IMG/VR virus record: IMGVR_UViG_3300031836_000002
Span: 1-64,000 of that record
Length of the DNA stretch: 64,000 nt
Source of the DNA: a virus
Taxonomy: Duplodnaviria > Caudoviricetes
Direction: 5' to 3' (one strand)
In this document: piece by piece, positions 2,169-30,409 of the stretch
How the letters are laid out: each line of letters opens with the position of its first letter
Numbering within the stretch: the first letter of the stretch is position 1
Position numbers and translations under genes: made by a program
The notes under the pieces: model-generated
Databases searched by the model: none
Told to the model about the DNA's origin: nothing
What the model saw: only the letters and a program-made list of their open reading frames with translations

Positions 2169-2444
2169 TTAGTCGAAGCTAGTGTCTGCTGAGGCTTGAT
2201 CTAGGACAGCTTCCAAGTCTTCCAGCGTGCTCGGATAAACCGTCCACATGGCCGTGGGGGTGGGAGTGGAGTCTGAGAGCTGGTCAATCCAGTCTTCCCA
2301 CTCCACGGCACTGCCTCTAGCGGCCACCACCAAGGCTCCATAAGCCTTCAAATTGGTGTGGGTGGGGTCGTAGTAGCTTTCCGTCTCTGTGTAGACACCC
2401 ACGGGGATCCCACTTGCTGTTTGGTGAAGTAGATAATCAGACAT
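2169..2444 (-). CDS. Small acidic hypothetical protein, candidate immunity protein
   Basis: 91 aa; overlaps the upstream small gene; second of two small ORFs after the giant effector gene. Confidence 0.55.
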   Translation of the reverse strand: MSDYLLHQTASGIPVGVYTETESYYDPTHTNLKAYGALVVAARGSAVEWEDWIDQLSDSTPTPTAMWTVYPSTLEDLEAVLDQASADTSFD

Positions 2445-2748
2445 CGTAGGAATCCAGTTCCTTCTTCAAAAGTCGCCCTTTCAGTTCCGGAGCTTTTCTC
2501 CAGACCCAGCTCTGTTTCGGGGTGGTAACGAACCACTCACTCTCTACTTCCTCGATGGAATTTATCTGAAGGATGACATCCTTCTCAGGATGCACTATCA
2601 GAGAGACCTCCAGCTCGTCTTTGTCGTCAGAGACATTTCCTAGAAGGACTATCAGATCAAGATCTGTCTTGTCACTGATGGCGTGCACTCCGAAAGGGAA
2701 GAAGGCTTTGAACTTCTTCGTAAACTCTTCTTTTGTTATTTGAGCCAT
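2437..2748 (-). CDS. Small acidic hypothetical protein, candidate immunity protein
   Basis: 103 aa; overlaps the stop of the giant effector gene (translational coupling). Confidence 0.55.
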   Translation of the reverse strand: MAQITKEEFTKKFKAFFPFGVHAISDKTDLDLIVLLGNVSDDKDELEVSLIVHPEKDVILQINSIEEVESEWFVTTPKQSWVWRKAPELKGRLLKKELDSYDV

Positions 2749-5700: not shown

Positions 5701-8700
5701 GCCACATCGTCGTAGTACTTCTCGGAAAGAGAAGTTGTCCAGCCCTCGGTGGGGAATTGGGAGTTGTCGAACAGTTGATCATATGCCTTGGCTGGAACGA
5801 TGTCATCGGTCCACTCCACAGGATCAGAGAGGGTTTTGTTTCCGTCCTTGGATCGCTTCTGTGCCGATAGAGATAGCTTGTCTACCAAAGCCTTTTGATT
5901 GTTTCGGTGAGCAAACACCCAAGCGCGTCGATCTGCCACCGTCAAGTGCTCTGGGTATTTCATTTGAGCCTTGATCAAATAGTTGTCTAGCTCAGCTATG
6001 GGGATTTGGGTTGTTCCCATCGGAGTCCAGTCACCCTTGACTGGTCGAAGTGCTGACACCTCTCCGGGGACTGCTGCTGCCCAGTGGACCTTGTGGGTTC
6101 CTTCATTCTCTTGGTAGCCGGGGTGCTTGTATCCAGATTTGTGTGCTTTTCCCTCGGCTGCTGCGGCTTTCACTTCGATGTTGTACACCTGAACGAAGTC
6201 GCCCTTGTTGAAGGCTGAGATCCACTGCTGCTTGTCGTAGATGTCCATCTTGGTGGAATGCAGACCAATAATCTCACCGTTGCCTATGGACATTGAAGCT
6301 TTCTTGATCCAAGCCTTTTTCTCTGCGTTGGTGGTCACGTTTACCGAGTCCATCAACTCTTCGGGCATGACAGCGGATCCTTGGATGTCCCAAGTGAAGA
6401 GCTTCGTGGTGTTGGAATCCGGGATCTCTGTATTCACGCCCGCGAGCATGGCGTCTACTGCATCTGCTACAACTTTGAGCTTGTCGTCATTGCTCTGGGA
6501 AGTACTCTTGTCGTCATCGAATGGGGTGCTGGGCTGCTCGACGGCATACTTAAGGACAAGAGCTGCTTCGTATACTGCTCCAGCTTCCTTCACAGCATTG
6601 ACTACCTTATTCTGCTCAGCTAGGGTGCCTTTGTTCTCTGAGGTCTCGTACTCCTTGAATAGCTTCTGTGCTTCCAAGAGAGAGTACGTGGACACCTCCT
6701 TGCCAAAAAATGTCACATCTCCTGTGTACCCCTGAGGCAGCACGGAGTTTCCGAACTCATCCGTGAGCTTTCCCTGAACAAAGAGGGTCTGAATCTTTGC
6801 CTTGGTGAGCTGAACAGGTTCTGCATCTCCGTGAGATTTGATCTTGTAGTAGGGGTAGTAGCTGGACGCAGACTTCAATACCTCTTCAGGAGTGGGGTCC
6901 CCATTCGACTTCTTCCACGAGCCATCTGCTTGCTTGGTGTGGCTATCCATATCGTCATAGTTGCCCACGATCTGTGCACCTGTGGAGGCCTCGAACAGCC
7001 ACAGAGCTGTAGTCTTCTGTCCTATCTTTCCTGTCGAGCCAACAGTCGCACTCTTGGGTTTGGTGACAGTAACTACGTCTCCATTGACTTCATACGTCCA
7101 CGCCTTCGCCCCGGAAGGAGAACCGTTGAAGTACGTGCCGTCTTCCAAAGCCTCTACGTTTTTCAATTTAGGCTTGAGGACTGACTTGTTCGTGCTCGAA
7201 GTCTTCTTTTCCGCTGGCTCTGGGTAGTCGCTAGGAATACCTAGGTACTTGTTCATTCCGGCCTTGTGGTTAGCCTTCACCTTGGCTGTCGTCAGGGAGG
7301 TGGCCGCACCTGTGGAGTTGACGTATACTCCTGTGCCATCTTCCTTGACCACCATGTACGTTGGTCCTCCGCCTGTGTACTTTCCGGGATGCAGACCACT
7401 CTTGTTCTTCTCTGTGTCGATCTCGTCTAGCTTCTTCAGCTGACCAAGAGACGCTGCATTCTTTTGGGTACCTCCTATCCCAATTGAGATTCCCTCTTCG
7501 TCCGCGTTGAAGAACTCCCATTGAGTGTCGGTGGTCTTTGTGTGGAAGCCTCCGAAGGTGTCTTCAAATATGTCACCCTTCTTGGCATTCTCTACATCCG
7601 CTGGGGTCGCATCGGCGTTGTCGGAGTAATCAAGACCGTCATCAGAGTTGGGGAGCTTCTTGAGGATGTCTCCTATGGGGTCCTGAGAATCTTCTTCGAG
7701 AAGCTCAGTCTTCAGTTCAGGGATGGATCCGTAAACAGTGCTTTCCCAGACATCATCATCTGAGAAGAGTCCCGTGAGGACTCCATCGTCATCCAAGTAA
7801 TTCCATTGGTCTGTCTGCGTCTTCAGGAAGTGTCCTCCAGCCTCGGCTGGTACCACGGTTCCTTCAGGAGCATTGATGATGTCGGCTGCCTCGGTAAGCC
7901 CATCTCCCACGTTCTTCGATGTCTTCTCTTCCTCGGCCTGCGGGAACTTGGTCAGCTTGCTCTTCAGAAGGTCGATGAACTTCTGCTTGGTGACGGTCTT
8001 GTCCTTGTCGAACCCTACGATGTCATTGGGGCTGAGCTTTCCTAGAGCGTTGCCTTTCTTGTTCAGCTCGCTCTTGAAGATCTTCCCGTTGAAGCCTTCG
8101 AGGATCTCGATGGCTTGCTCGATGTCGTCCTTGGTGAAGGCTCCTCCAGTCTCACCGGTGGGTGTGGTCTGGGACTCTGCACTTCCGATGTTGACCGTGG
8201 GGCCTTCAGAGTTCTTCTCTTTCTTGGTCTCCGTCTTGATTCCAAGCTTGTCCTTCAGCATCTGAACCACGCCCTGCTTGGGAGGTAGGTCCGGGTGGGC
8301 AGTCTTAGCCCATACCTTGAGTTGGTCCTTCGGTAGCTTGGCTAGAGGGTTCTCAGGAACCGACTTCAGTCCGTAGGCGATCTGGAATGATGGGTGACCC
8401 TCCAGAGCATTCAGAGCCTCTTGCATCTCATCAGGGGAGAAACTCTCGCCGCCTGTCTCGAAGGTCGTTTCGAGAGGGTCTGGGTTCCCTGAGTCCTTAG
8501 AGGCCACCGAGAACTTACCGCTAGCTGCGGAGTTCTTGAGGTCGGAGGAAAGAAGAGTTTGACCTCCGGGAGTCAGCCATTTTCCGGTGTCGAGCTTGGT
8601 GTACTGGCTAAGCTTCCCATCCTTCTTAGCAAAGTTGAGTATGGTTCCATTTTCCAGTTCGTCCATCTGCTCGTAGCTTGTGATGACTCCTTCTGGGGCC

Positions 8701-10304
8701 TTCTCTGGGGCCTTCACAGAGTAAACAATCTCACCCTGATAGTTAGAAATGATGGACTCTAGAGCAGTTGAGTCTACGTCGCTCCCAAATTTACTGTGAG
8801 TCCAGACTCCGCCAGCAAGCTTCTCCCAGTTCAGAGGGTCACTAGGCACACTCGAATAACCCAGCTTGTATTTGTAGTCAATCACGGTGCCGGGTCTGTA
8901 ACCCTCAAGATCCGAAAGGGTGAAGCCTTTCATTGCATCGTCAGGCTCTTCAGTTGATTGTGGCTTAGCCTCTTCAACTTCCGTGGGGGAGGGGATCGAG
9001 TACACCCGTCCGGATTCCAGTGCCTCAGCAAAGGTCTCGGTGGGCCACTCCCATCCCATGTCCGGCTCAACATCTACTGCTTCTTCGGTGTCTTTTTTCT
9101 TGAATGTGAGGAAGGATTTTTCTGAGGTGGGGTTATTAAGAGCCTGCACAAAGAAACCGTCTGGCTCAACCTCATCCAAGGAACTGACCAGCTCTGCTCC
9201 CTCAGGAAGGTTCAGAGACTCCTTAGATGCGACCTTAGGGGCCTCTTCTGTCTTGTCTGGGGTCTCGGTTACTTCTTTGTCCTTTGGGGCCTCTACGGGC
9301 GGCTCAGCGTCAGGTGTTGGCGCTGGGGCCTCATCCGATGGAAGTCCACCGTTTGAGTCTTCTTCCACTGGGGCAGGCCCCATGACTAGGAGACCCTTCA
9401 GAAGAGCCAGCTGTGGGGACTCGATCTGGGCCTCAATGCCTTCTGTTCCCCACGCGCCACTCTCAAGCTTTGTTGTGTTGGCTCCAGACGGACCCGGAAG
9501 GTGGACAGTGGTTCCTACAGCCATAGCCTCAAGAGCTGCTGTAGCTGCCGGAAGATCCATTTCTGAAAATGAGGTCTCAGCCACTTCACCGAAGGTGCTC
9601 TGAAGAGCTTCATCCTCTGGAGTCTTCTCAGGGATCAACTCACCAGAATCGTAGAAGCCCTGAAGGTCCTTCTCGTCCACCTCGACATTGAGCTGTACGT
9701 GACGCCAAGACTTCTCTGAGACCTTGGTGAACTGAGGCTCACCATCTGGGTCTGTGAGTGTGGATCCCACGGGAAGGGATGGCATCGAGTAAGGGCTGGC
9801 CGTTGCCTCGAAGTCGATCTCTTCGTATTTTTCGTCTTTCTCCAGATTTCCAGAGAACTTGACCTTGAGCACATTCTTGAGTCCTGTTGGGATGCTTACC
9901 TCGCCACCGGCTGTGAATGCGTGCACCTCGCCTTCCGGGGTCAGGACGTAGAGGAAGGCCGCTGTTTCCTTGTTCTTCGACTTGATCAGTTTTGATCCTG
10001 CGGGGGCCGAGTACTTCGAGTTCCCTACGGAGAATTTCTTGTTTCCGGTAAGGGCAGACTTCGAGGTCTTGATGGAGGCTTCCACAGCCTTGGCCGTGGA
10101 CGCTGAGGGTGCGCCAGAGATGGCATTCTTTGGAGGAGTGATCCCCAACTTAGCTGCCGACTTTTGCTTGGTCTCCTCCACATCTGGGGTGATGATCGAC
10201 CCTACGGGCAGGCCATAGAACTCCGCTCCCTCTACCGTCCGGACGAACCTAGGATCCGCGGCTAGAAGAATGAGATCTTCCAGCAAGTTGTTCGAGTCGT
10301 TCAC
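2736..10304 (-). CDS. Giant (~2520 aa) polyvalent virion-associated protein: targeting-like N-terminus, repeats, HipA/PI3-PI4-kinase-like domain, C-terminal ART-like domain
   Basis: Start revised to GTG 10304 (SD AGGAGA overlapping the upstream stop). Kinase-like motifs YFFKP, RAEVE..N.L..LWG, DWLLDNDDTKGDN, GIDKGRAF (~4780-5560). C-terminal EERL..G...GMS...D....ASNVYTR...NETM pattern. Located between MuF and protease. Confidence 0.7.
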   Translation of the reverse strand: MNDSNNLLEDLILLAADPRFVRTVEGAEFYGLPVGSIITPDVEETKQKSAAKLGITPPKNAISGAPSASTAKAVEASIKTSKSALTGNKKFSVGNSKYSAPAGSKLIKSKNKETAAFLYVLTPEGEVHAFTAGGEVSIPTGLKNVLKVKFSGNLEKDEKYEEIDFEATASPYSMPSLPVGSTLTDPDGEPQFTKVSEKSWRHVQLNVEVDEKDLQGFYDSGELIPEKTPEDEALQSTFGEVAETSFSEMDLPAATAALEAMAVGTTVHLPGPSGANTTKLESGAWGTEGIEAQIESPQLALLKGLLVMGPAPVEEDSNGGLPSDEAPAPTPDAEPPVEAPKDKEVTETPDKTEEAPKVASKESLNLPEGAELVSSLDEVEPDGFFVQALNNPTSEKSFLTFKKKDTEEAVDVEPDMGWEWPTETFAEALESGRVYSIPSPTEVEEAKPQSTEEPDDAMKGFTLSDLEGYRPGTVIDYKYKLGYSSVPSDPLNWEKLAGGVWTHSKFGSDVDSTALESIISNYQGEIVYSVKAPEKAPEGVITSYEQMDELENGTILNFAKKDGKLSQYTKLDTGKWLTPGGQTLLSSDLKNSAASGKFSVASKDSGNPDPLETTFETGGESFSPDEMQEALNALEGHPSFQIAYGLKSVPENPLAKLPKDQLKVWAKTAHPDLPPKQGVVQMLKDKLGIKTETKKEKNSEGPTVNIGSAESQTTPTGETGGAFTKDDIEQAIEILEGFNGKIFKSELNKKGNALGKLSPNDIVGFDKDKTVTKQKFIDLLKSKLTKFPQAEEEKTSKNVGDGLTEAADIINAPEGTVVPAEAGGHFLKTQTDQWNYLDDDGVLTGLFSDDDVWESTVYGSIPELKTELLEEDSQDPIGDILKKLPNSDDGLDYSDNADATPADVENAKKGDIFEDTFGGFHTKTTDTQWEFFNADEEGISIGIGGTQKNAASLGQLKKLDEIDTEKNKSGLHPGKYTGGGPTYMVVKEDGTGVYVNSTGAATSLTTAKVKANHKAGMNKYLGIPSDYPEPAEKKTSSTNKSVLKPKLKNVEALEDGTYFNGSPSGAKAWTYEVNGDVVTVTKPKSATVGSTGKIGQKTTALWLFEASTGAQIVGNYDDMDSHTKQADGSWKKSNGDPTPEEVLKSASSYYPYYKIKSHGDAEPVQLTKAKIQTLFVQGKLTDEFGNSVLPQGYTGDVTFFGKEVSTYSLLEAQKLFKEYETSENKGTLAEQNKVVNAVKEAGAVYEAALVLKYAVEQPSTPFDDDKSTSQSNDDKLKVVADAVDAMLAGVNTEIPDSNTTKLFTWDIQGSAVMPEELMDSVNVTTNAEKKAWIKKASMSIGNGEIIGLHSTKMDIYDKQQWISAFNKGDFVQVYNIEVKAAAAEGKAHKSGYKHPGYQENEGTHKVHWAAAVPGEVSALRPVKGDWTPMGTTQIPIAELDNYLIKAQMKYPEHLTVADRRAWVFAHRNNQKALVDKLSLSAQKRSKDGNKTLSDPVEWTDDIVPAKAYDQLFDNSQFPTEGWTTSLSEKYYDDVAESNPELTAIYEEALAASTFGNPSIVKNKAVTDYFQKKSHEQYLESLIPVYTKKPLQTVKQGTHPIAEYSDQHGNDYFFKPRPDTDNGRFRAEVEGLGNSLGRLWGFNSAEPRLVTIDGQYGLLQSKVHGVGDLMGADYGTLSVDQIAGVGGEHVLDWLLDNDDTKGDNAIIDGSGKIVGIDKGRAFRSYGSWKGLSGDHKADSNAKTVYTQLFDSMRAGKIDKATADAAYLKIQRRITNVSKIDDASIRDLMVEGMKSRDTGYDVPYKIDGTLVSQDFEGLMAAVLDRRDHLSVDFETLWAGAYKDSKLGVLPEIPDTPLGDVLSGLGDSRLHEQVLTTGSVGKSTMVGGADIQGGFATVWTDEYESGSKNLLGELTLGPKKQKAVLEFLQTATAQFDKDKSASQGFSAVDVHHSSLLDAAKTVNHHALDKDYNAAKMTKFAETAKTIREDFEEWSPNLISNISVVGVDHYKFKSGTTVPMVHVDQYKMLLDFYQPRLADIEKAHEENGKVAPKIEKFTPLNLSDDLKVYTNPDGVQTATLMANGSYLLKNLDTAQVSFVNSSELDTSEWTPVTVEQPKSLGYVVKLNHHTNEMSGSVEENIKTSNPESTGGVEGSSGVEYEIKLDTGERVFFRNSGQTNTVASQRGKVMFRADGSGKDTAAVANSLERIEGILQTMGIDSTPMDEAGAELVYWREMYQILDNRMHEVGSPYAAAKADLQDFKTQKSDVSETFLETLSDSMTSQEELTFWRDLHTKHFGEEKVSRVLKEELYLPQYDHQMMSQPEMETGKPHWIRYDFTPEEIRETGKMLMTSSTNDPLRQSLVGGSLGAEERLRQNGYWVNGMSATTDQTNDSASNVYTRIHSISEHNSFNAFFDPAALLRTRTYSYSYDRYGDVQWKSSDAPSNPKYALEKFTGSANETMLPHSAALLDIVEVYAFKDSAKRNHAIQALKKRGIEMIRGLPIEERLVMKANVLEALNKVKKQWLK

Positions 10305-10311
10305 GGTTCTC

Positions 10312-10533
10312 CTAATCGTCGTACCGGATAGCTCCCGGAACTTCTTCAAGCTTAGATGCGACCGTTTCTATGTCTCCTTCGAGATGAAGACCAGAAACAA
10401 GAATTTGTGCTGCGCTCAAGCTGCCGAACTGATACTTACTATCGGTCTTTCGCGCATCCTCTAGAACCATGAGTAGTCCTGTCGCTGCTGCCCCAAGACT
10501 ATCAAAGAAGAATCTTGCTGTGGTTCCGGACAT
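10312..10533 (-). CDS. Hypothetical protein (73 aa)
   Basis: Fills the gap between MuF and the giant gene; its stop overlaps the SD of the giant gene. Confidence 0.6.
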   Translation of the reverse strand: MSGTTARFFFDSLGAAATGLLMVLEDARKTDSKYQFGSLSAAQILVSGLHLEGDIETVASKLEEVPGAIRYDD

Positions 10534-10535: not shown

Positions 10536-11330
10536 TTAGACTCCCGTGACGAACGAAATAATCTTCTTTAGTGCACCTATGATGGCTGAAAAAATCTTGA
10601 GTGGGAGTCTTTGAACTCCATCGGTGTCCATGGTCTGCTGAGGCTCTCCGGGGGACTCAATGTCTAGTTCCTCGAAGGCGTTCTCTAGTGACACCACCAG
10701 AATCACCAAACAGCACCGACAGCGTGGGTGCCTTGGGGGACCTTGAAGGTTAACGTACACCCCCGGAGAATTCCCTGTCACGGGGAATTCATCATTGAGT
10801 CTCACCACGGTGCCATGAAGTCGTCGGCAATGCTCGCACGGAGTGTTGTTGACGAAGTTAGCTAGCCACAACTTCTTGAGCTGGTGTCCAAAGTCTGAAA
10901 GCTCCGCGTAGGAAGCAATCAGGGCATCTGTGTATCCACGCTGCGCACCAACTCCGGCGCTGTGCTGCATTCGAAGGAGGGCCTTACGCCGAGCCTTATC
11001 TTCTTTGTCGCTGGACTTGTAATCCCGGAGGTTACGTCGGATGTCTGAGATGAGGTCCTTGAGGTACTGGGTATTGAAAATCTGGCCCTGTGGGTACCAT
11101 CCGGGGATCTCGGACTGTCGTGCGGTGTGTTCGGCTGCCACGGCTGCACTGGTCCTATACGCGGCGCGGACGATGGCTTCCAGACGATACCGGACAGTCT
11201 GAGCATTCAACTCACCACGATCCCATGCGTCGAACGCTTCGGAGATGTGTACTCTGACCTGATCCTCTATTGAAGAGGCTGCTAGGTGGGCTACACGGGC
11301 TGCCGCGAGCTGCTCCCCAAAACTAGCCAT
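10536..11330 (-). CDS. MuF-like minor head protein
   Basis: KKLW...TPCEHCRRLHG...PPRHPRCRC, the characteristic Phage_Mu_F Cys/His motif; downstream of portal. Confidence 0.85.
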   Translation of the reverse strand: MASFGEQLAAARVAHLAASSIEDQVRVHISEAFDAWDRGELNAQTVRYRLEAIVRAAYRTSAAVAAEHTARQSEIPGWYPQGQIFNTQYLKDLISDIRRNLRDYKSSDKEDKARRKALLRMQHSAGVGAQRGYTDALIASYAELSDFGHQLKKLWLANFVNNTPCEHCRRLHGTVVRLNDEFPVTGNSPGVYVNLQGPPRHPRCRCCLVILVVSLENAFEELDIESPGEPQQTMDTDGVQRLPLKIFSAIIGALKKIISFVTGV

Positions 11331-11616
11331 CAGACTTTCCCGTGGCCTCGCGAGAGAGGATCGCTGTCACTTCGGAGGAGGTTTTTCCTTCCGAGAACAC
11401 TCGAAGCTCTTCTATGAACTTCAGCTTGAGCGTCTTTCTCAAGTCTTGGTTTCCAGTCTTGTCTGCTTTCTGGATCTGCCGTTGAAGAGACTGGAGACGA
11501 ACAAATGTCACCGGTCTGGGTTCGGGGAGAACTTCACTGCCTTTTCCAATCTCGGAGCCGACAGGCTTGTTGAAGTGCTTCTCACCCGCAGGCGTCAAGA
11601 CTTGGCGCGGGGCCAT
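11323..11616 (-). CDS. 97-aa protein carrying the shared N-terminal effector signature
   Basis: RQVLTPAGEKHFNKPVGSEI aligns with the N-termini of the 1044-aa and giant proteins. Confidence 0.65.
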   Translation of the reverse strand: MAPRQVLTPAGEKHFNKPVGSEIGKGSEVLPEPRPVTFVRLQSLQRQIQKADKTGNQDLRKTLKLKFIEELRVFSEGKTSSEVTAILSREATGKSDG

Positions 11617-11617
11617 A

Positions 11618-11815
11618 CTAGCTCCAGTCGCTGGGGATGGTCATCTGCTGACCGGGCTTGAGGTTGTTGAAGTCGTTCTCTATGAGGTCATAGTAGTCCT
11701 CTACAGCCTCAACGCGATCTGCTGGAACGCTGTTATCTTCTAGGTACTTCTCCACTGGATGTTCTGCCATCACATATGAGGAGATCCTAGACATCTCATC
11801 TACTGTCAATTTCAT
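11618..11815 (-). CDS. Small acidic protein, candidate antitoxin/immunity
   Basis: 65 aa, very acidic; second small gene behind the 1044-aa toxin-domain protein. Confidence 0.55.
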   Translation of the reverse strand: MKLTVDEMSRISSYVMAEHPVEKYLEDNSVPADRVEAVEDYYDLIENDFNNLKPGQQMTIPSDWS

Positions 11816-11827
11816 GATTGTTCCGTC

Positions 11828-12037
11828 CTAGGCGAAAGCCTCTGGTGTGAGCTTCCGTGCTTTTTTCTCGTCTATGGCGTCCGTGCCAATCTCGTTGTTA
11901 TAGATCCGCTCGTACAAGCTAGGAGCAACATTTACCCATGCTGATGTCTTCGTGTCCCAGCGCTCTTGTGTGCTCTCCTCTGAGGAGTACCGAAACAGTG
12001 CCCTTACGGACTCTTTGTAATAATACTGAATTTTCAT
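11828..12037 (-). CDS. Candidate immunity protein for the alarmone-synthetase domain
   Basis: 69 aa with YY..LFR...E.WD...W...Y.RI.....I.E..A.KL pattern; directly follows the RelA/SpoT-like C-terminal domain; has its own SD (GGAGGTG) and promoter. Confidence 0.6.
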   Translation of the reverse strand: MKIQYYYKESVRALFRYSSEESTQERWDTKTSAWVNVAPSLYERIYNNEIGTDAIDEKKARKLTPEAFA

Positions 12038-12083
12038 ATTTCACCTCCACTACCACTATAACAGACAGATTGCATTTGAAATC
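12038..12083 (-). promoter_or_regulatory. Internal promoter with the phage palindrome, in front of the candidate immunity genes
   Basis: Minus strand GATTTCAAATGCAATC-N7-TATAGT with extended -10 TG, same geometry as the early cassettes. Confidence 0.65.
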
Positions 12084-15000
12084 TTACGAGATGGCTGAGA
12101 AATTATCTTCCGATGGAATGTCGTTGGCCATCGAGAACATGGCCACGTCCAGCTCAGTGGCCCGTTCACGTTTCTCAGGAGTCAGCGGAGGTGGGCTGAA
12201 GATGGCTCGTCGTTCCTCGTAAAGAGCGTGCATTCTTTCCATCTTCACATCCAGTGATTCTGGGGTGTGGAACTGAAGCTCGTAGGTTAGCCCATCCTTG
12301 GTTGTCACTGCGGTGTTGATTCCTCGGTAAGGAATATCTGTACTCCCCCACGAGTTTTTCACGCGGACGGTGTTTCCCTCGGCACGTAGCTCATCAATCG
12401 CTGATTGAGAGGTCTCCACGTAGCTTCGAGAGTCTGTCACCATGGTGTAGCGAACAGTGTCCCCTAGTTTCTCTCTGGCTTGTGCGTGCGTGATTCCGTC
12501 TGTGGTGGCATCCTTCCGGATCTTTCTCTCCAGAGAGTCCTTCTCCTTGAGTTTGAAGTCCAGTCCGGAAAGCTCTGCCTTCAGGGAATCGGCCAGTTTC
12601 TGTATTCTGGACGTAACAACCGGCTCTTCTGCGGTGGCTTGCTCGTAGGCCTCATCGGTCAGTGCAGAAATCTGCTCATCGGACCCTTCGGGAAGATCCG
12701 CACTGCTTGGACGCCCTGAGGCTACTTTCTTGGCTGCCGCTACCTTCTTGGCTGCCGCTACCTTCTTGGCTGCCGCTACCTTCTTGGCTGCTGCGGCTTT
12801 CTTGGTTGCCTTCTTCTCGGCAACCACCTTCGGAACCTTGAATCCATCCCAAGCTGACTCTCCTGAGGATAGGTAGCTGTCGAATGCTTTCTGGTTAGTG
12901 ACATTGAAAGACTTGCCGTCACCGCTTCCGACCAACGTGGCGGGCTTTCCATCCACATTGTTGTCGAACAGGTTCACCTTGTCGAAGGTTCCATCGTCCT
13001 TCAAGGCGTCAAAGATCTCAGGAAGAACCGCGTAGGTTCCTCGGATCTGAGCTTCTGGAACAATTCGGTGGGAACGCTCGGCACGGGTCTGTGCTCGTGA
13101 GATTCCCTGCCGTGGTTCTAGGTACAGGTAGTTGGCCTCTACTGCGTAGCCTGCCTTGCGGGCTGCTCTCACCTTTGCTCTAACAGAGTCTGCACTGCCA
13201 TTTCCGGTGCCATCGTAGATCACATTGTATCCGCGGTCGAGCGCTGCTGAGTGGAGGCGCTTGGCTAGCTGGCTTGACTCCTCGTGGGAGTGACCTGCCC
13301 AGCTCATGTCTTCCTTCTCGTAGTCTCCGGAGCGGATGCGCTCTAGTGCTAGTTTCACTTCCGGGAACTGCATCTTCACAGCATCCGGGTCGATAAGCAA
13401 GGCTCCGGGGGTTCCCTCGAAAGGCTCAAGGTCGCCGGTGGCGTCGTCCACAGCACGAGATGTGGGGTACTTCGTCAGCTCGGCGTTTCTACCCTTGGTC
13501 ATGGATCCCTTGCCAGAGGCTGGGCCTCCACCGTTCATGTACTGAACAGGGTTGTCCTGAGGCTCTAGTCCTACAAGGAAGTCAGAGATAATCTTGTCAT
13601 GCAATTTCTTGCGGGCTGCCGTGAACTCGCCCTTCTCATTCACGTGCGCTGACGTATAGGGGCTGGCGGACAGTGCTTTGATCTCACCCTCGTCTGGAAT
13701 GCGTGCTGACTTCTCTCCCAAGCTCTTGGGGTTCCGCTTGAATCCCGCCCTGTCGGCGGATGTTTCAGTCTTTGGGGAGGAAGACACTGATGACTTGGCG
13801 GCTTCTACCGCTGAGTCGTAGTCAGCCGCATACTCTCCCTCACCGGGGGTGTATGGAGTGTCAAGCTTGCTCTCGTCGTAAGCCAAGAAAGTAACGTCTG
13901 GCTCTCCTCCGTTGAAAGCTGCGTAGTCTTTCTTGTTCCAGTCGTCCGGAGCTTCGTCGTCGTCCCACTTGAGTCGTGATTTGACTCGAAGTCCTTCCAG
14001 AGCGTAGATTCCGGGGAGCACTGTGTCGAATGCGTCTGCTCGTCGCCCACCTTGAGAAATTGCTGTGGCCATGAGATGTCTGGCTACTTTCTTGTTCTCA
14101 CTGGAGGGGTCTGCCCACACCGAAACAATCTCATCACCATCCTTAAGAGCCATTCCAGATTTTCCATCTTCGGACATGAAGAGTCGCATCTCGGAGTACT
14201 CACTCTCGTCGTACACCCAGACAGAGCTAGAGAATTTGTTGTTCTCCTTCATCTTCTGCATGGCGGAGTGAAATCTGGAAGCTTCAGCTTTTGATTCGAG
14301 TTCGTAAATTACTGGAGTGGAACCACCAGCGGCTTTGATTACCGCGTTACGCTTTGTTCCGTTCTTGAAAACGGCTTTGGTTTTGACGGAAGAACCATCA
14401 ACTACAAGCCCATCTCCTCCGCTGCCTGAATCCGCTCGTCTGTCCAGTGTTTTTGGATCTGACTCTTTTGCTCCGGTGTCGCGTCCTCCGGAGTCACGTA
14501 CTTCAGGTACGCTTTTCTGGCTTCCGGCGTCAGTGGACTTATCGGAGTATTTTTCTCCATTGTTTGACCTTTTTTCGTCTCTTGTTTTATTGAGATTATC
14601 ACGATTTGAAGTCTCTGAGGCATTCTTCGCCTTGTCGTTCGCATCCATGTTTGGAGTTTTCGGATCACCCGTCACATCAGTGAGATCTCCTGAGGAGTCC
14701 GCCATGAGAGATTTGACGCGAGCCTCTGTCGTAGAGGACAGCTCGACCTCTCCCTTGCTGTTGAAGAATCGAACAGATCCATCAGGAAGTACCAACATGG
14801 TGGCGTCTGGAGCGCTTGAGTGTGTGAAGGCTTTGGACCCAGCGGGGGCTTCGTAGTCAGAGCCTCCGGCTGTGAATTTCGTGGGTCCAGAAAGCGTCGG
14901 TGTGGTAACCTTGGCCTTCCCTTTGACCTTCCGAGATGCCTTGGTGCTGACCTTTCCTGCTTTAGGCGTCTCCGCGGCTGCCTTGGCTGCTGCGGCCTTG

Positions 15001-15218
15001 GGATTGGCCTTAGCGGTCTTTACCTGTGCGGGGGCTGAATTCTCCGGGAGAGCTGCTGTAGAGCCTCTACTGGTAGTTCTGGACTGCTTGGAGGCTCCCT
15101 TGGGTGGTGGCTTACCTTTGTTGGCCTTGCGTGCTTTATCAAGAACGTCAGCGGTGATGGGTGTACCAATGGGAAGGCCGTAGTACCGAGACCCCTCTGG
15201 GCTTGCAACCTTACGCAT
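12084..15218 (-). CDS. 1044-aa polyvalent effector: GNAT-like, zeta-toxin-like P-loop kinase and small alarmone synthetase (RelA/SpoT-like) domains
   Basis: GNAT-like segment (GGRRADAFDTVLPGIYALEG..., ~13870-14290); P-loop GGGPASGKGS, IDPDAVK, HEESS, VIYDGT (~12880-13660); LKEKDSLERKI..DTVRYT..YRGIN..YELQFHTPES..H.LYE (~12090-12660). Confidence 0.8.
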   Translation of the reverse strand: MRKVASPEGSRYYGLPIGTPITADVLDKARKANKGKPPPKGASKQSRTTSRGSTAALPENSAPAQVKTAKANPKAAAAKAAAETPKAGKVSTKASRKVKGKAKVTTPTLSGPTKFTAGGSDYEAPAGSKAFTHSSAPDATMLVLPDGSVRFFNSKGEVELSSTTEARVKSLMADSSGDLTDVTGDPKTPNMDANDKAKNASETSNRDNLNKTRDEKRSNNGEKYSDKSTDAGSQKSVPEVRDSGGRDTGAKESDPKTLDRRADSGSGGDGLVVDGSSVKTKAVFKNGTKRNAVIKAAGGSTPVIYELESKAEASRFHSAMQKMKENNKFSSSVWVYDESEYSEMRLFMSEDGKSGMALKDGDEIVSVWADPSSENKKVARHLMATAISQGGRRADAFDTVLPGIYALEGLRVKSRLKWDDDEAPDDWNKKDYAAFNGGEPDVTFLAYDESKLDTPYTPGEGEYAADYDSAVEAAKSSVSSSPKTETSADRAGFKRNPKSLGEKSARIPDEGEIKALSASPYTSAHVNEKGEFTAARKKLHDKIISDFLVGLEPQDNPVQYMNGGGPASGKGSMTKGRNAELTKYPTSRAVDDATGDLEPFEGTPGALLIDPDAVKMQFPEVKLALERIRSGDYEKEDMSWAGHSHEESSQLAKRLHSAALDRGYNVIYDGTGNGSADSVRAKVRAARKAGYAVEANYLYLEPRQGISRAQTRAERSHRIVPEAQIRGTYAVLPEIFDALKDDGTFDKVNLFDNNVDGKPATLVGSGDGKSFNVTNQKAFDSYLSSGESAWDGFKVPKVVAEKKATKKAAAAKKVAAAKKVAAAKKVAAAKKVASGRPSSADLPEGSDEQISALTDEAYEQATAEEPVVTSRIQKLADSLKAELSGLDFKLKEKDSLERKIRKDATTDGITHAQAREKLGDTVRYTMVTDSRSYVETSQSAIDELRAEGNTVRVKNSWGSTDIPYRGINTAVTTKDGLTYELQFHTPESLDVKMERMHALYEERRAIFSPPPLTPEKRERATELDVAMFSMANDIPSEDNFSAIS
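12721..12792. repeat. Tandem 18-bp repeat x4 encoding (AAKKVA)n linker
   Basis: GCTACCTTCTTGGCTGCC x4 (near-identical), between the zeta and SAS domains. Confidence 0.95.
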
Positions 15219-16878
15219 GGTTCATATCCTCCGCTGCCATATCCAACATCTCCCGCGCCAACGATAGTAGCCCAGAACCATCTCCAGTCAGGGACAGCCG
15301 TCTCTCGAACTCTTCCAGATCTTCGTCCTTCTCATCCGGGGGTTTTTCTTCTGCTCCCACGTCTGAAATCTTCTTTAGGAATTCTTCCAGAGTCCAGTCT
15401 CCCTCTAGTCCCAGTTCGGATCCTGCTACGTCTACCGGGGCTGCTGGATCTACCGGGGCTGCTGAGGGATCAACACCCTGCTGCTGAGCTGCCAGATCTT
15501 GTGCCTCTGCCTCTGCCTCAGCCTCAGCCTCCTCACTCTCTCGCATATCCACTTCGTCGTAGTCAATCTCCAAACCAAACTCTTCTGCTTGGTGCTCTTC
15601 GAGCGCTCGCAGGAACTCGGGGGTAACCGTGGTCTGGTTGGCCAGCTTGTCGAACGTGGCTGCAATTGCACCCTTTTGTTCGTCTGTGAGCTTTCCCCAT
15701 GTGAAGGTGGGGTACCGACCTCCGGTGAAGTTGTAGTCCACAAGCTGAGGAATAATGTAGTGGTTGATCTGGGCTGCAATGTCGTCCATGACGGCTCGAA
15801 GCATCAACACAAACATGTCGTCGCCGGGGGCTGCAAAGTTGACTAGAGAACCTTCTCCGGCTCCCGCTCCTTGCTCCTTGTCGAAGAACGACGCGAGGAT
15901 GGACTTCGACATCTGAGAGTTGTGGTGGTTCACCCAGTTCAAGAATTCGAAGGATCCGGCTTCCTTGAGCACCTCTACCTTGAATCCTTCAGGCATCATC
16001 ATCCACTGAGCCAGTGCGAGGTTGGCTAGTGAGGTGTTGAATTCCTTCTTGGACGCTGTAGTGGCACCTGCCGGTACTGTTCCCACGCGGGTACCTACGG
16101 CTGCACGCTGTGCAGCCAAGTGAGCAATGAAGTAGGTCTTGACTTTCTTGTCATAGTGATAAAAAGCAGACTGGAAGAAGCTAACTCCGTAGAACTTGCG
16201 CTCTTCTTCTTGTGCTGCGTAGTAGAAGGCTTGCTCGCGTGGGATGAAAACGTCGAGCTGCTTTCCTCCCATGTAGGAGCGCTGACGCAGGCCGGAGAAC
16301 CCTCCAGACTTGTCCACTATGAACGTGACAGTCTCTGCTGGACGGTGTGCCAGCTTCTTGAGGGTGATCTTCCCAGCAAGAGGTCCGGTCTCAGGTGCCC
16401 AGAAAACCTTCTCGAAGGCTGCAAAGCCATCGAACATTCCCTGAAGCATTTGGCTGATGAATCGGTGGAAGGTGACTGTCATTCCACCACTCTCAGGAGG
16501 AGTTCGTAAGACTGCACTGATGAAGTCTGCTTCCTCTTCTCCATCCTCGGCAGGGACGAACGTAGCGGTGCTCAGAGCTGATCTGATCGGTAGAGTCAAG
16601 AGACGGTAAAGAGCGCGTGCTTGGCCATCCATACGGCGCATGGTGACAAGCTGGCGGACAGTGGGTCCCCACTCTTCACTCTCGTCGCGGAAGACTTCCT
16701 GTAGGTCCTTTTGAGGATCCTTCTTAGTACCATTCTTGATTGGCTGGTACGGAGAAGCGAATGGAAGTAGGGAGTCGGAGCCTAGCTCTACGTTCAGAGC
16801 GGCGATCTCTATGCTCGCAGGCTTGGGTGTCTTCTTCTTGCGATTCGATGTCGGTGTGACCTCATCGTCTTTGGCCAT
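15211..16878 (-). CDS. Portal protein (Mu gp29-like)
   Basis: 555 aa directly after TerL; M.RMDGQARA, GFAAFEKV, YGVS.FQSA, HHNSQMSKSILA, IIPQLVDYNF patterns; acidic C-terminal tail. Confidence 0.88.
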   Translation of the reverse strand: MAKDDEVTPTSNRKKKTPKPASIEIAALNVELGSDSLLPFASPYQPIKNGTKKDPQKDLQEVFRDESEEWGPTVRQLVTMRRMDGQARALYRLLTLPIRSALSTATFVPAEDGEEEADFISAVLRTPPESGGMTVTFHRFISQMLQGMFDGFAAFEKVFWAPETGPLAGKITLKKLAHRPAETVTFIVDKSGGFSGLRQRSYMGGKQLDVFIPREQAFYYAAQEEERKFYGVSFFQSAFYHYDKKVKTYFIAHLAAQRAAVGTRVGTVPAGATTASKKEFNTSLANLALAQWMMMPEGFKVEVLKEAGSFEFLNWVNHHNSQMSKSILASFFDKEQGAGAGEGSLVNFAAPGDDMFVLMLRAVMDDIAAQINHYIIPQLVDYNFTGGRYPTFTWGKLTDEQKGAIAATFDKLANQTTVTPEFLRALEEHQAEEFGLEIDYDEVDMRESEEAEAEAEAEAQDLAAQQQGVDPSAAPVDPAAPVDVAGSELGLEGDWTLEEFLKKISDVGAEEKPPDEKDEDLEEFERRLSLTGDGSGLLSLAREMLDMAAEDMNHA

Positions 16879-16880: not shown

Positions 16881-19616
16881 CTACATCATCCCCTTCATCC
16901 CGATAGGCAGCTCAAGAGGCCCTCCGAGCATAAATCCTACCTCGTCACTGCCTTCCAGCTCCGAGATTGCGGAGCCGACTTCGAAGAAGGGAACGCCTAC
17001 CTCTGTACTTCTACCATCGGCATCTTCTTCTCCGCCTGCTTCAATGGCTCCAACAATGGAGCATGCGAGTGCGTCTGCGAGGTCTTTTGAGTTGTGAACG
17101 AACACCCCGCCAGACAATGCGAAGTTATGAAACTCGTCCACTTCTAGGTCGAAAACAGGCTCAGGCTCGTCCAGAACCACCGGAATGACGGCTCGAACCT
17201 TGTGGTTGTTATCTGTCGATGCAAGCAATTCAGGGAAGGTCACTCTCTCCACTCGAAGTCTGCCCTCCACTACCTTCCAGTCACAGTTCAAGATCCGTGC
17301 GGCTTCAGCTCTGTTGGTAGCTCCTTCCCGAATAGCTCCAAGGATGCTGTCCACAGTCACGTCCTCCCGGAAACGGGCTACCCTCCGGCCCGAGTAGGCG
17401 GCTGCTTTGCGCTCTGGATCGGCTGCCCATTCAGTGTGGCCTGCTCGCATTGCCACGACTCGATCACTCCAAAACTCGTTGCCGTGGTGAGTCACATGAT
17501 CGACCTGAGAAATCATCTCCAGATTCTCGGGTCGATTGTCGATCTTCACCTCGTTCTTGTGGTGTACTACCTCATGAGAGACCCGCGTGCGCCCCTCGAA
17601 ATGTTCCGACACCATGTGGTGCGCCAGAGTCCGCAGGCCATCCTTGTCAGTGAGTCTGGTGTAGCCACCGTTGACTGGCCAATTGAAGGTAATCGGCATA
17701 AGTCGGTCGATTCCCGGTCGAAGGTCCTTAGCCTCCCGATAAGAGCCATCACGGAGCATCCAGAGGTGTTCTGGAGTGCAGCGAGCGACGTAGCCGCTGT
17801 CCAAAATCACGTCCACCAACTCTGTGGTCATCTTGGTCATTCTCCCTCTGGCGAGTCCCGGCTTGATCTTGCCACAAGCATTGACAGAGTAGACCCACAC
17901 CTGTTGCCCAACCAGTTCGCTGATTTGGGGGAAGGTCCCATCCAGCAGCGGAATCCGTGTCTCACCAACAAAACATCCGTGCGGAGGATGATCCACTTTG
18001 TTGTTCACACGGTTCAGAGAGACCAGTTCGTCCATGAGTAGCTGATCGAAGGGCATGTGGAGTCGCCCATCTGAGGCCACATCCTTGAGGGTCTTCCACA
18101 CATCGTCGTTGATGTCCGCGGAGACTCTCTTGGATTCGATGCCGTGCCTATTGAGGACTTGGATCGTGTCGGCTGATTGGAACCCGTCGAAGGTGAAGCT
18201 CCGAATGTAGAAGCCTCGTTTGATTAGTTCGAAGGCCAGCATGCGTGCCCACCGGATCTGGATCTCTCTGGGAGGGAGGGCTGAACTCTTGGCAGAGAAT
18301 CCAAAAACGAAGTCCACCTTGATGATAGGTACCAGCGTGGCTATCGGGTAGAGGCCACCCTCTTCGTCCTCCACCATATCTACCTGCTCGATCCACTTTT
18401 CCACGTGGCTCATAGCAATTCCAGCTCGGTCGCCCTTGATCGCGAGGTCGCCGTGCATGGCGTAGTTGGCTCCTTGAATGGGAACGAAATCTGGAGCGAA
18501 GTTATATACCGGCTCCCATCCCTCCGTCACGGTGCCTGTCTGATCGGACTTGATCTTGGTGAGCTTGTAGTCCACCGTCAGTGGAGACTCATCTCGAACC
18601 ACAGCGTTTTTGAAAATAGCGGGGTTACGGAAGTAGGCGTCCACAGCACGGGTCGGCTTGCACTCGTACATAGCTGCTGCGGCATCCGGGTCTTCCTCGT
18701 AGTCTTCCGCGAAGTCTTCCTTGCCGGACACGCGAGGATTCACTTCCCAAGTTGCTAGTGGCCCAGAGACGAAGTGGATCGAGGAATCTCCGTACTTCTC
18801 GATGGAGGCATTGCCTTCGGCAGTCAGCCGTTGGATTGTCGATCCCTTATAGCGAGGGTACGAGATCGAGACGCGCTTGTACGTGCGTGGGAATCTGGTA
18901 GCTGCTGACCCTTTGAGCATCTTCAGGATGGACTCCGCGGATGTCGATGCCTCTCGTGCTCGCTTGCCCTGACCCACCATCTCGTCCTTGGCCTTGAATG
19001 CGTCGATCTCATCGGCAACACCAAGGATGAGGTTCAGCCCTTCTTGACCTTCGGCATCAGAGTGGCCAGAGATAGCTTCGAGGTATTTGTCATACTGGAT
19101 GTGACCCTGCTTGGGGTCGGCCTTATCTTTGAACCACCCGCGCTTGACGGCTTCAGTCATCGGCTTGAAGAAGGCTTGGTTAGCCTGTCCGGAGTTGGCC
19201 GCAATGTTGAGCATGTGGATGGAGTCAGTCTCAGGCATCTGGAAGTAGAGCTGAGGAGATTTCAGACATAGGAGAAGATATGCGATCCTCAATGAAGAGA
19301 GTCGAGCAATCATGTCCTTGCCTGCACCCTTGCCGTATTGGAGGGTGATGATGTTCTTCACTGGAAGATCGGCTGCCCAGTACTCAGAGTCAAATTCTTC
19401 TGCCATGAGAGGGTACAGCTCTGGATAGTAGACCCGCTCGATGTGACGAATAGCGTTCGCCTGCACAGTGGAAAGCTCTACATTGGTCTGGCCTAGGAAT
19501 TTCTTGTCTTGGACAAACGTCTGTAGGGGGACAGGCTCTTCCTCAAAGATCTGAGCCAGAGTACTCTGTTCTGGTTCCTCGTCTTGGAGGAAGAATCCTG
19601 AAAGGGGTCCTTGCAT
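16881..19616 (-). CDS. terL: Terminase large subunit with intein
   Basis: Walker A GKGAGKD, Walker B VADEID, nuclease motifs HGDLA..GD and DHPPHG|SKDLADA split by an intein. Confidence 0.92.
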   Translation of the reverse strand: MQGPLSGFFLQDEEPEQSTLAQIFEEEPVPLQTFVQDKKFLGQTNVELSTVQANAIRHIERVYYPELYPLMAEEFDSEYWAADLPVKNIITLQYGKGAGKDMIARLSSLRIAYLLLCLKSPQLYFQMPETDSIHMLNIAANSGQANQAFFKPMTEAVKRGWFKDKADPKQGHIQYDKYLEAISGHSDAEGQEGLNLILGVADEIDAFKAKDEMVGQGKRAREASTSAESILKMLKGSAATRFPRTYKRVSISYPRYKGSTIQRLTAEGNASIEKYGDSSIHFVSGPLATWEVNPRVSGKEDFAEDYEEDPDAAAAMYECKPTRAVDAYFRNPAIFKNAVVRDESPLTVDYKLTKIKSDQTGTVTEGWEPVYNFAPDFVPIQGANYAMHGDLAIKGDRAGIAMSHVEKWIEQVDMVEDEEGGLYPIATLVPIIKVDFVFGFSAKSSALPPREIQIRWARMLAFELIKRGFYIRSFTFDGFQSADTIQVLNRHGIESKRVSADINDDVWKTLKDVASDGRLHMPFDQLLMDELVSLNRVNNKVDHPPHGCFVGETRIPLLDGTFPQISELVGQQVWVYSVNACGKIKPGLARGRMTKMTTELVDVILDSGYVARCTPEHLWMLRDGSYREAKDLRPGIDRLMPITFNWPVNGGYTRLTDKDGLRTLAHHMVSEHFEGRTRVSHEVVHHKNEVKIDNRPENLEMISQVDHVTHHGNEFWSDRVVAMRAGHTEWAADPERKAAAYSGRRVARFREDVTVDSILGAIREGATNRAEAARILNCDWKVVEGRLRVERVTFPELLASTDNNHKVRAVIPVVLDEPEPVFDLEVDEFHNFALSGGVFVHNSKDLADALACSIVGAIEAGGEEDADGRSTEVGVPFFEVGSAISELEGSDEVGFMLGGPLELPIGMKGMM
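17091..17975 (-). mobile_element. Intein (295 aa) with HNH homing endonuclease
   Basis: Starts CFVGETRI, block B CTPEH, ends FDLEV..HNF...VHN followed by Ser; internal VHHKNEVKIDNRPENLEMI HNH motif. Confidence 0.92.
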
Positions 19617-21153: not shown

Positions 21154-21895
21154 GGTTCCTACTATCGACCAAACGATACGCAGGAGTGTTCCTGTGCTGT
21201 ACAAAGTCTTCAAGGTGTAAGAAGTTACCCGGCGTTCCGTGGGTTCCCACTACTCCGATGTTGTTGGTTCTGCTCACCACAGGACACACGCTCGTGAGAC
21301 CCAGCCGAGGAAGTAGCCGTGTGTTGATATTCCAGTCCCAGCCTGACTGGTTTCCGGGACGAAGATTGAAGGTGGAGTAATCGTGGTCCCATGTTGGGCT
21401 GAGAAGTTCTTGCCATCTGTCCCGCCATGTTCCCCACATCAATGGGCTGAATTTGGAAATTAGCTCCACATCCCGCGCACTTCCTTCGGCTTCTGAGAAG
21501 GCATGAACTGTGGCCACCGAAGGATCTAGCTTGAACTTTTTTGCTGCCCATGAGAAGTACTCCAGCACGTCATTGGAGACGATGATGTCATCCTCTGCCC
21601 GAACCACGAAATCGTAATTTCCTTGGAGGTTTGTGGAGAACAAATTCTCGAATCCTACCCATGGGTGGTGGAGGACTCCGTAAACCTGTGGATTGACTTG
21701 GATGGAGAATCGTCGGAACTTGGTCTTCCTACTGAACTCTTCAAATTCTTCTACGATCTGGTGAGACAGATCGCTAGGTTCGATCATGGCAACCATGTCC
21801 CATTCCTCTACTCCGACCACACTCTCCCAAGTGTGGAGTACCTGCTGAAGGTAGGAAAGGCGGTTATACGCCGTCAGGAATAACGCTTTTCTCAC
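21146..21895 (-). CDS. Glycosyltransferase (GT-A fold)
   Basis: LFLTAYNR..YL start, RAEDDI (DxD-like), WGTWRDRW, PVVSRTNNIG..G.H. Confidence 0.8.
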   Translation of the reverse strand: MRKALFLTAYNRLSYLQQVLHTWESVVGVEEWDMVAMIEPSDLSHQIVEEFEEFSRKTKFRRFSIQVNPQVYGVLHHPWVGFENLFSTNLQGNYDFVVRAEDDIIVSNDVLEYFSWAAKKFKLDPSVATVHAFSEAEGSARDVELISKFSPLMWGTWRDRWQELLSPTWDHDYSTFNLRPGNQSGWDWNINTRLLPRLGLTSVCPVVSRTNNIGVVGTHGTPGNFLHLEDFVQHRNTPAYRLVDSRNHD

Positions 21896-30352: not shown

Positions 30353-30409
30353 GGTGGCCTCCTTTCGATGAATTTAGATCAGCTTATCACACAGATTGCA
30401 TTTGACTTA
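30353..30409 (-). promoter_or_regulatory. Palindrome-promoter cassette variant
   Basis: GTCAAATGCAATC-N7-TAAGCT, then SD AAGGAGG before ATG 30352. Confidence 0.6.

Follow-up and report, generated by a model that had tools for sequence, protein, structure and literature searches.

Why does the head-gene region of a phage carry, in a single 46-bp gap, a promoter-like motif that is otherwise found ahead of genes elsewhere in the genome? The question is raised by 64,000 nucleotides of a virus of the Caudoviricetes (positions 1 to 64,000 of IMG/VR record IMGVR_UViG_3300031836_000002; called here the window). In this window, a gene for a head protein of 1044 amino acids (aa), ending in two toxin-like domains, is followed by the gap and then by two small open reading frames (ORFs) of 69 and 65 aa. 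The original prediction regarded the two small proteins as candidate immunity proteins with a promoter of their own. The record is a complete virus genome of 124,209 bases with direct terminal repeats, and the window is its first 64 kb. The motif in the gap is a true member of a repeat family that is otherwise confined outside the structural region, and comparisons across related phages support the view that each of the two toxin domains has its cognate partner in one of the small ORFs. Taken as a whole, a cassette of one toxin and two antidotes, the latter separately promoted, is an explanation that we regard as rather probable.

The repeated motif ahead of the small genes

All genes in the part of the window around the gap are on the minus strand. 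When up to 3 mismatches are allowed, the 16-base palindromic core of the gap is matched 22 times in the window, where 0.41 would be expected (palindromic sites score on both strands), and no more than 2 were seen in 100 shuffles. A shorter core of 14 bases, at the same tolerance, matches 68 times on both strands of the whole genome, and 29 of these matches have TAnnnT 5–10 bases downstream. The minus (coding) strand holds 26 of the 29, which are the gap site and 25 others, all at 30,394–96,632. This agrees with the earlier statement that the geometry is otherwise found outside the structural region. Genes at 26–64 kb include those for a sliding clamp, a nuclease, a methylase, a deoxynucleoside monophosphate (dNMP) kinase and a TetR-type regulator, so the motif-bearing region is non-structural. 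When a weight matrix trained on 24 other motif copies, with the gap site left out, was used to score ca. 248,000 positions, the gap site ranked 17th (21.7 bits, maximum 24.9). The second-best site of the structural region scored 16.0 bits, lies within an ORF and has no -10 element, and on this ground the claim that the head module holds no other copy can be upheld.

Copies are defined by the 14-base core, 6–9 bases, and TAnnnT, on the coding strand and in a gap before a ribosome-binding site and start codon. With one mismatch in the core, a 7-base spacer and TGT-TATAGT, the gap copy fits this definition, and the predicted arrangement of palindrome, seven bases and TATAGT is present in full (Table 1). 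Its membership of the family is thus a computed result. The copies fall into two classes, one with a spacer of ca. 7 bases and a TATGCT-like -10, the other with a 9-base spacer and TAGACT. The gap site is of the first class, in which TGn immediately precedes TAnnnT in every copy, and it too has this extended -10 element. The distance from -10 to ATG in the gap copy, at 17 bases, is shorter than in most copies. The motif core has a single match (2 mismatches) in Microbacterium phage Magritte, the nearest named relative (portal 66% identical), and is absent from all 92 comparison loci examined; the motif is therefore specific to this phage lineage.

The two classes hold different regions of the genome (TATGCT class 30394–62085, TAGACT class 59913–81818), and may be two temporal classes. 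At most copies (window positions 30381–62087) a leader sequence, GTAAGGTCAAC, lies ca. 12 bases past the -10 and ahead of a GGAGACACC-type ribosome-binding site. This leader may be a processing site, a regulator site or part of the promoter.

The toxin domains and their small partners

Both toxin-like domains of the 1044-aa protein are recognizable by homology. Pfam places Zeta_toxin (PF06414) at residues 553–754 (expectation value, E, 1.9e-20). The domain also aligns to the zeta structure 1GVN in PDB (E 0.0024), with the Walker A, IDxD and DGTG motifs aligned, and an alignment of three phages has invariant Walker A and catalytic motifs. At the other end, residues 855–1029 match PDB entry 8VX3 (SaSAS, E 4e-14), and the C-terminus is 42.6% identical over 140 residues to the C-termini of MuF toxins of Streptococcus (pneumococcal) phages. 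The nearest sequences to the synthetase domain are the toxin-bearing ends of MuF proteins from phages of Streptococcus, Pasteurella and related hosts, which are the published Apk2 family. It has 3,219 relatives at E≤0.001 and keeps 14 invariant columns, including the RYT, YxGxN and ExQ motifs. Its nearest solved relative is reported, in the available text of one paper, to make both (p)ppApp and (p)ppGpp (PMC12691689). Both domains are presumably toxic. At the N-terminus, residues 2–195 match the N-termini of Magritte gp17 and of the 2537-aa protein of the window, suggesting a head-incorporation module. No MuF domain is found in the protein by Pfam, and a search of viral contigs with the whole protein confirmed no related locus.

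Given such a synthetase, an inhibitor of the IapK type is a reasonable candidate for the small protein encoded next to it. A search for IapK gave 95 matches, 74 of them 64–75 aa long, which were thinned at 80% identity to 23; after two frameshifted sequences were dropped, the remaining 21 representatives, with the 69-aa protein itself excluded, made up the profile. Among the genome's 1,849 ORF segments (40 aa or longer), searched with all filters off, the profile ranks the 69-aa ORF first (E 0.0051, runner-up 0.29). In length and position, too, the protein agrees with the IapK of Streptococcus and Pasteurella phages: in IPP32, Javan452 and Pmp13 the toxin gene is followed by an ORF of 68–72 aa (20–25% identity with the 69-aa protein). 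It also matches a syntenic 74-aa ORF in viral contig L010 (BLASTP E 8e-5) and a sequence in locus L013 (tblastn E 2.4e-7). Otherwise, a tblastn search of phage records with the 69-aa protein gives nothing, word-indexed homolog searches with either small protein return only their own clusters, and neither belongs to a family in Pfam or PHROGs. Kelch-repeat PDB entries listed for the 69-aa protein were discarded as repeat or composition noise, no single stretch having passed.

The structure prediction for the 69-aa protein with the Apk domain, which had been proposed as a check, has been run. Three runs, made with our own alignments of the Apk domain (57 rows) and of the 69-aa protein (22 rows), gave scores of 0.90, 0.87 and 0.90; none of three controls exceeded 0.00. 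The runs share at least 98% of their contacts, and the predicted local distance difference test (pLDDT) score of the partner is at least 88. Among solved complexes, 116 of 157 reach the mark used for these scores, as do 2 of 215 mismatched pairs; it is a rough guide here, as our own alignments were used. The computed interface takes in the invariant residues Y130, G132, N134 and E146 of the Apk domain, so that the 69-aa protein is predicted to cover the active site. This agrees with the occlusion mechanism described in the available part of the published account (PMC12226406).

The 65-aa protein is of a different kind. AlphaFold2 (6 sequences) models it as three helices with a conserved C-terminal tail (pLDDT 89.1), and its isoelectric point (pI) is 4.1. 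Its syntenic counterpart in L010, a 77-aa ORF, is found by BLASTP at E 5e-8 and has the C-terminal motif in common. Searches beyond such relatives were negative: tblastn against phage records gave two chance-level rows from Shewanella phages (E 0.2–0.5), a sequence search of PDB gave nothing below E 0.18, and an Atlas search gave no feature match and only generic helical structure neighbors. A fold search with two models found nothing at E≤0.001 (best Z 5.1), the nearest rows being weak helix-turn-helix matches such as KorA (E ca. 1). A role as DNA-binding regulator was rejected in view of the pI and of how weak these helix-turn-helix rows are, and a remnant of Aph1 was rejected because the ORF has no HD signal and is too short. 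When metagenomes were scanned with the 65-aa alignment, one locus came up, L012, and it is spurious: the matching stretch is out of frame and lies among bacterial polysaccharide genes.

What the 65-aa protein belongs with becomes visible from covariation. A scan with the zeta alignment gave 201 relatives, of which 80 loci were kept, and profiles were run on their six-frame ORFs. By these profiles, Apk occurs in three of the 80 loci (L013, the L010 contig and L053), domain X of the 1044-aa protein also in three (L014 to L016), and the 69-aa type only in L013 and L010, while the 65-aa type is found in five phage lineages (L013, L014, L015/L016, L017 and L010). The combinations are as follows. 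Zeta, Apk and both small types are together in this phage, in L013 and in L010, the last a 102-kb viral contig reached through one of the 150 listed Apk relatives, which also has a zeta domain. There, a 2320-aa protein ends in zeta and Apk and is followed by the 74-aa (69-aa type) and 77-aa (65-aa type) ORFs. In L013, which is syntenic with this phage, zeta and Apk are followed by a single 157-aa ORF that fuses both small types: its first half matches the 69-aa type at E 2.4e-7, its second the 65-aa type at E 2.4e-11. L017 is another syntenic relative (terminase 59%, portal 65%). Its 702-aa protein has the common N-terminal module and a zeta domain, without Apk, and only a 65-aa-type ORF is present, directly downstream, before the MuF-like gene. 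L014–L016 have zeta and domain X without Apk, and again only the 65-aa type; in L015, where the giant protein is complete (2907 aa), the small gene is directly upstream. Conversely, of the two toxin domains L007 and L008 have only Apk, and the next ORF is of the 69-aa type at its N-terminus. L053 encodes zeta and Apk in two different genes; behind the Apk gene come an ORF of the 69-aa type (one directed comparison, E 1e-5) and, after it, an HD_4 hydrolase.

From this pattern of occurrence it follows that the 65-aa family goes with zeta, and not with Apk or domain X. A weaker but broader count points the same way: among 9,814 small ORFs in the 80 zeta loci, the 65-aa profile has 21 matches, all taken at a permissive level (E<10), and 13 of these are directly downstream of a zeta ORF, against a background of 117/9,814 (hypergeometric 9e-21). 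With duplicate contigs removed, ca. 10 lineages remain. By sequence comparison, then, the 65-aa protein is the founding member of a new family found alongside zeta domains in phages, and it most likely neutralizes the zeta domain, to which it would bind. In line with the earlier suggestion of one antidote per toxin domain, the 69-aa protein is paired with Apk by profile, position and predicted complex, and the 65-aa protein tracks zeta by co-occurrence in the five lineages.

Other parts of the carrier deserve mention. A motif of ca. 20 residues (R-x-V-x-T/S-P-E/A-G, then Y/F-G-L/V-P-I/V-G) opens the 1044-aa and 97-aa proteins. The 2537-aa protein has it close to its N-terminus, Magritte gp14 and gp17 contain it too, and it may serve as a common signal for head incorporation or processing. 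Domain X matches the C-termini of minor capsid proteins of Microbacterium phages (13815–14351, minus strand; 44–47% identical to Caron, UtzChips and Barnstormer, in which no small ORF follows it, L006 3001–3510), and recurs within the giant zeta proteins of L014–L016. It has no match in PDB, and its sole family hint is GNAT at E 0.1. In L053 (6946–11924), short genes (MuF-like, zeta, Apk and one more) open with a common N-terminal motif of ca. 30 residues, and a small ORF of its own stands behind each toxin gene, in what looks like a split, modular form of the fused toxin.

Transcription of the cassette and the alternatives

The order of genes in Magritte is terminase, portal, gp14, MuF-like gp15, gp16 and giant gp17, and its portal and gp14 genes overlap, leaving no gap. 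Neither the toxin gene nor the two small ORFs are present in that phage. In the window, the 1044-aa gene, the gap and the two small ORFs make up a cassette of 3.6 kb between the portal gene and the gp14 homolog. In the account we prefer, this cassette is an insertion with the portal gene on one side and the MuF-like head gene on the other. The 1044-aa protein would be an effector carried in the capsid, brought into the head by its N-terminal module, and its cargo would be two domains, a kinase of the zeta type and a (p)ppApp synthetase of the Apk type; we infer both its packaging and its ejection. The 69-aa inhibitor would sit over the Apk active site, and the 65-aa protein would neutralize the zeta domain. 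The gap copy would be the phage's repeated extended -10 promoter with palindrome. Since this motif otherwise serves only non-structural genes, the antidotes would be transcribed with those genes, independently of the toxin and probably before it, the toxin being read with the head genes. An antidote made in this way would fill the cell before new toxin is made, and toxin that the infecting particle has ejected could be inactivated by it as well. The activity and the timing of the gap promoter are both presumed in this account.

Relatives with a high G+C content offer a comparison. In L013 and L017 the gap before the antidote gene is 46–48 bases and contains TGnTAnnnT. In L013 this is the sole TGnTAnnnT in 9,230 bases (0.004 expected in the gap), and in L017 it is one of three in 16,747 bases (0.007 expected). 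The L017 gap also has a 16-base palindrome, which overlaps the -10. In the complete 125,778-base genome behind L017 this 16-mer is one of 7 forward copies (up to 3 mismatches), with one reverse copy, and reversed-pattern controls give 0 and 0. All 7 forward copies have a start codon within ca. 50 bases downstream, and the other copies are 23–85 kb away from the head genes. Thus this phage and L017, with motifs that are unrelated in sequence, each place their own repeated motif right before the antidote gene.

A number of observations speak against the preferred account, and they concern both the proteins and the promoter. On the side of the proteins, the 69-aa protein is weakly linked by sequence to streptococcal IapK (E 0.005, 20–25% identity), the IapK profile misses the 69-aa-type ORFs of L010 and L007 (best E 0.14–1.2), and the reverse profile reaches a true IapK, that of Javan452, at E 0.63 only. 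Because the Tas1-Tis1 complex is reported solved, the score of the predicted complex may reflect likeness to that complex rather than binding by this copy. For the 65-aa protein, neither epsilon nor PezA, nor any other solved protein, is among its sequence or fold matches; its gene is upstream of the zeta gene in L014–L016; and the ORF after the zeta gene of L053 has no match to the 65-aa family. Effector chaperones are also small and acidic, as this protein is. All this, together with the weak helix-turn-helix rows, would fit a chaperone or loading adaptor of the zeta-bearing head protein, or a small regulator, leaving only the 69-aa protein as an immunity protein. We consider this unlikely, as a pI of 4.1 argues against DNA binding, as the 65-aa type is fused to an IapK-type protein in L013, and as its occurrence matches that of zeta one to one, in the way that immunity genes match toxin domains.

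On the side of the promoter, the GTAAGGTCAAC leader is absent from the gap copy, as it also is at 30394, 60701 and 61232, which share the TCAAATGCAATC core variant with it. The leader of the predicted transcript would be only ca. 11 bases. There is no -35 hexamer at 16–18 bases, the nearest candidate being TTTCAA at 15 bases, and a plain sigma-70 consensus scan does not call the gap site. The gaps of L010, at 14 and 28 bases, leave no room for a promoter, so a separate antidote promoter is not universal. The near-palindromic core is typical of sites for dimeric regulators, and with the leader missing and the -35 spacing poor, the motif might be an operator or a recombination scar that came with the cassette and has no promoter activity, the small ORFs being translated from the long head transcript only. 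This is the least probable of the explanations considered, and a very unlikely one: the gap keeps the whole geometry of core, 7 bases, TGn, TAnnnT, ribosome-binding site and ATG, and an extended -10 stands at the equivalent place in relatives whose motifs are unrelated. Moreover, L010 has the cassette without the motif, which means that the motif did not travel with it.

If the gap motif is a working promoter, its transcripts need not end with the antidotes. The stop codon of the 65-aa gene is 1 base from the next start codon, that of the 97-aa gene, and no terminator-like site was found on the minus strand from 17500 down to 1714. Transcripts from the gap would therefore run on into the head genes, for which the promoter may matter as much as for the antidotes. 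Of the idea that the small ORFs have a promoter of their own, the position of the motif directly before them survives, while its being private to them does not. The same facts suit a different explanation, in which the motif does work as an internal promoter but has been retained to raise or bring forward expression of the head genes (97-aa, MuF-like and giant), with the small ORFs merely first in line. That is improbable in our judgment. Magritte has the same head genes without the cassette, and the overlap of portal and gp14 there leaves no gap; in L013 and L017 the extended -10 is again exactly before the antidote-type gene; and a separate candidate motif, CGATAGTA, is at hand at 10437, upstream of the giant gene. 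This 8-mer occurs 7 times on the minus strand, every copy being in the structural region, mostly in gaps or slightly upstream of gene starts. The copy at 21160 precedes the terminase group. The 8-mer, which differs from the palindrome motif, is a candidate for a late-promoter element.

The features discussed are listed in Table 1. Among the neighboring genes, the large terminase gene region (16881–19616, minus strand) bears an intein (Pfam Intein_splicing, residues 556–842, plus an HNH_3 endonuclease), and the Magritte terminase, which lacks the intein, aligns through the insertion point. After the giant gene come ORFs of 103 and 91 aa (2437–2748 and 2169–2444, minus strand), which the original prediction had put forward as additional candidates for antidotes, with no tblastn match to Magritte at E≤1e-3; nothing ties them to any toxin domain so far. 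The same phage sequence was found in many brine metagenome runs, with no RNA run listed among them. The reads of four runs contain it in pieces, with no joints and no variant without the cassette, and a megablast search of phage records with 11000–15300 gave no match.

Table 1. Coordinates of the cassette, its gap motif and nearby head-module features (positions in the window or genome; domains as residues of the 1044-aa protein).
Feature	Position	Strand	Remarks
Toxin-antidote gap	12038-12083	minus	46 bp, between the 1044-aa stop and the 69-aa ATG
Palindromic 16-base core	12083-12068	minus	abuts the 1044-aa stop codon, 12084-12086
TGT, end of the 7-base spacer	12063-12061	minus	directly before the -10
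-10 element TATAGT	12060-12055	minus	with TGT makes TGTTATAGT at 12055-12063
Ribosome-binding site GGAGGTG	12048-12042	minus	6 bases after the -10, 4 before the ATG at 12037
Predicted transcription start	~12047-12049	minus	placed from spacing only
1044-aa multi-domain head protein	12084-15218	minus	four parts; toxin carrier
N-terminal module	residues 1-200		shared with the giant head protein
Domain X	residues 290-468		unnamed
Zeta-toxin-like kinase	residues 516-800		Pfam Zeta_toxin
Apk-type alarmone synthetase	residues 835-1044		RelA/SpoT-type
69-aa IapK/Tis1-like immunity candidate for Apk	11828-12037	minus	by profile, position and predicted complex
65-aa acidic three-helix protein, candidate zeta antidote	11618-11815	minus	12 bases after the 69-aa ORF
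97-aa head-module gene	11323-11616	minus	Magritte gp14 homolog (tblastn 41.6% identity, E 1e-12); first after the cassette
MuF-like 264-aa protein	10536-11330	minus	Pfam Phage_Mu_F
Giant 2537-aa head protein	2736-10349	minus	no Pfam or PHROG family
~20-residue motif	15150-15218, 10180-10250, 11550-11616	minus	in Magritte locus L001 at 10665-10740 and 12180-12250
CGATAGTA copies	10437, 21160, 103228, 104273, 106292, 119357, 123388	minus	first two within the window

Relation to known systems and significance

The pair of Apk and IapK is known. In published systems, according to the available text, Apk2 genes are followed by iapK, which encodes a small blocker of the active site, and some also by aph1, for an HD hydrolase (PMC12226406); a second source, again as far as its available text goes, has a Tis1-like gene always present and aph variably (PMC10083569). 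The available portions of the literature assign the Apk2-IapK-Aph1 modules to the MuF polymorphic toxins of temperate phages (PMC12226406, PMC10083569, PMC5576092). The locus described here has in common with them a head-module protein that ends in a RelA/SpoT-type synthetase and is followed at once by an ORF of ca. 69 aa of the IapK/Tis1 type, and departs from them in several respects. The carrier is not MuF, the MuF-like protein being encoded by a separate gene. No HD_4 hydrolase (Aph1) has a match at E≤0.1 anywhere in the genome. As the genome has no match to Phage_integrase or Recombinase (serine recombinase), the phage is probably virulent, although it may have a lysogeny system of a non-canonical kind, whereas the published family, in the text available, is described from temperate phages only. 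A zeta domain and a second small protein, of what appears to be a new partner family, have been added, and in L013 the two small types are fused. Lastly, a promoter-like motif parts toxin from immunity here, whereas the gaps in IPP32, Javan452 and Pmp13 are 1–2 bases.

Epsilon/zeta and PezA/PezT are systems of two free-standing genes, with the antitoxin first. The likeness lies in a zeta kinase, with Walker A and a catalytic Asp, that is paired with a small acidic helical protein encoded beside it. Here, however, the kinase is an internal domain of a virion protein and not a free toxin, epsilon and PezA are not among the sequence or fold matches of the small partner, and the 65-aa-type gene is downstream in most lineages, not upstream. 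Cyanophage PSS2 gp030 and the 'minor head proteins' of PHROG 16619 are nearer in setting, being large head-module proteins with a zeta domain 33–36% identical and with small ORFs following, but they have no Apk domain, and the small ORFs of PSS2 have no match to the 65-aa profile. A literature search found no paper joining ppApp, phage and zeta toxin, and the papers it listed on IapK or Apk2 as toxin terms are those cited here.

Internal promoters for immunity genes have been described in type VI secretion system (T6SS) and Rhs loci (PMC3857813, PMC7043789; available text). There, and by prediction here, an immunity gene has a transcription signal of its own in or behind the effector gene, and so would be made when the toxin is not. 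The T6SS and Rhs examples are bacterial chromosomal loci in which, as the available text has it, the promoters were shown experimentally, whereas here the setting is a phage head module and the promoter is predicted. In addition, the motif in the phage would be borrowed from its own set of non-structural genes.

A more far-reaching proposal can be made, although we hold it to be doubtful. Large virulent phages would carry a capsid-delivered dual toxin, of zeta kinase and (p)ppApp synthetase, under a transcriptional timer, with the antidotes wired independently in different phages to their own non-structural (early or middle) promoters. The ejected toxin would give a short pulse of host shut-off, ended by the first transcripts, and toxin made late would be harmless until packaged. 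The 65-aa family would then be new and widespread zeta antidotes, unrelated to epsilon or PezA.

What toxin domains do on the head proteins of phages is still an open question, according to the available text of two papers, which describes such toxins only in temperate phages and fused to MuF (PMC10083569, PMC12226406). In the present phage, the Apk/IapK pair is on a different carrier, in a genome where no lysogeny genes were found, and is joined by a zeta kinase with a previously undescribed family of small partners. Toxin domains and small proteins are gained and lost together, and this yields a map of which protein answers which domain. In two phages with different motifs, transcription of the antidotes is apparently uncoupled from that of the toxin. 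A vague question thereby becomes a testable one, namely whether the toxin is ejected and then switched off. If the 65-aa family is indeed an antidote, it would be a new type of zeta kinase inhibitor.

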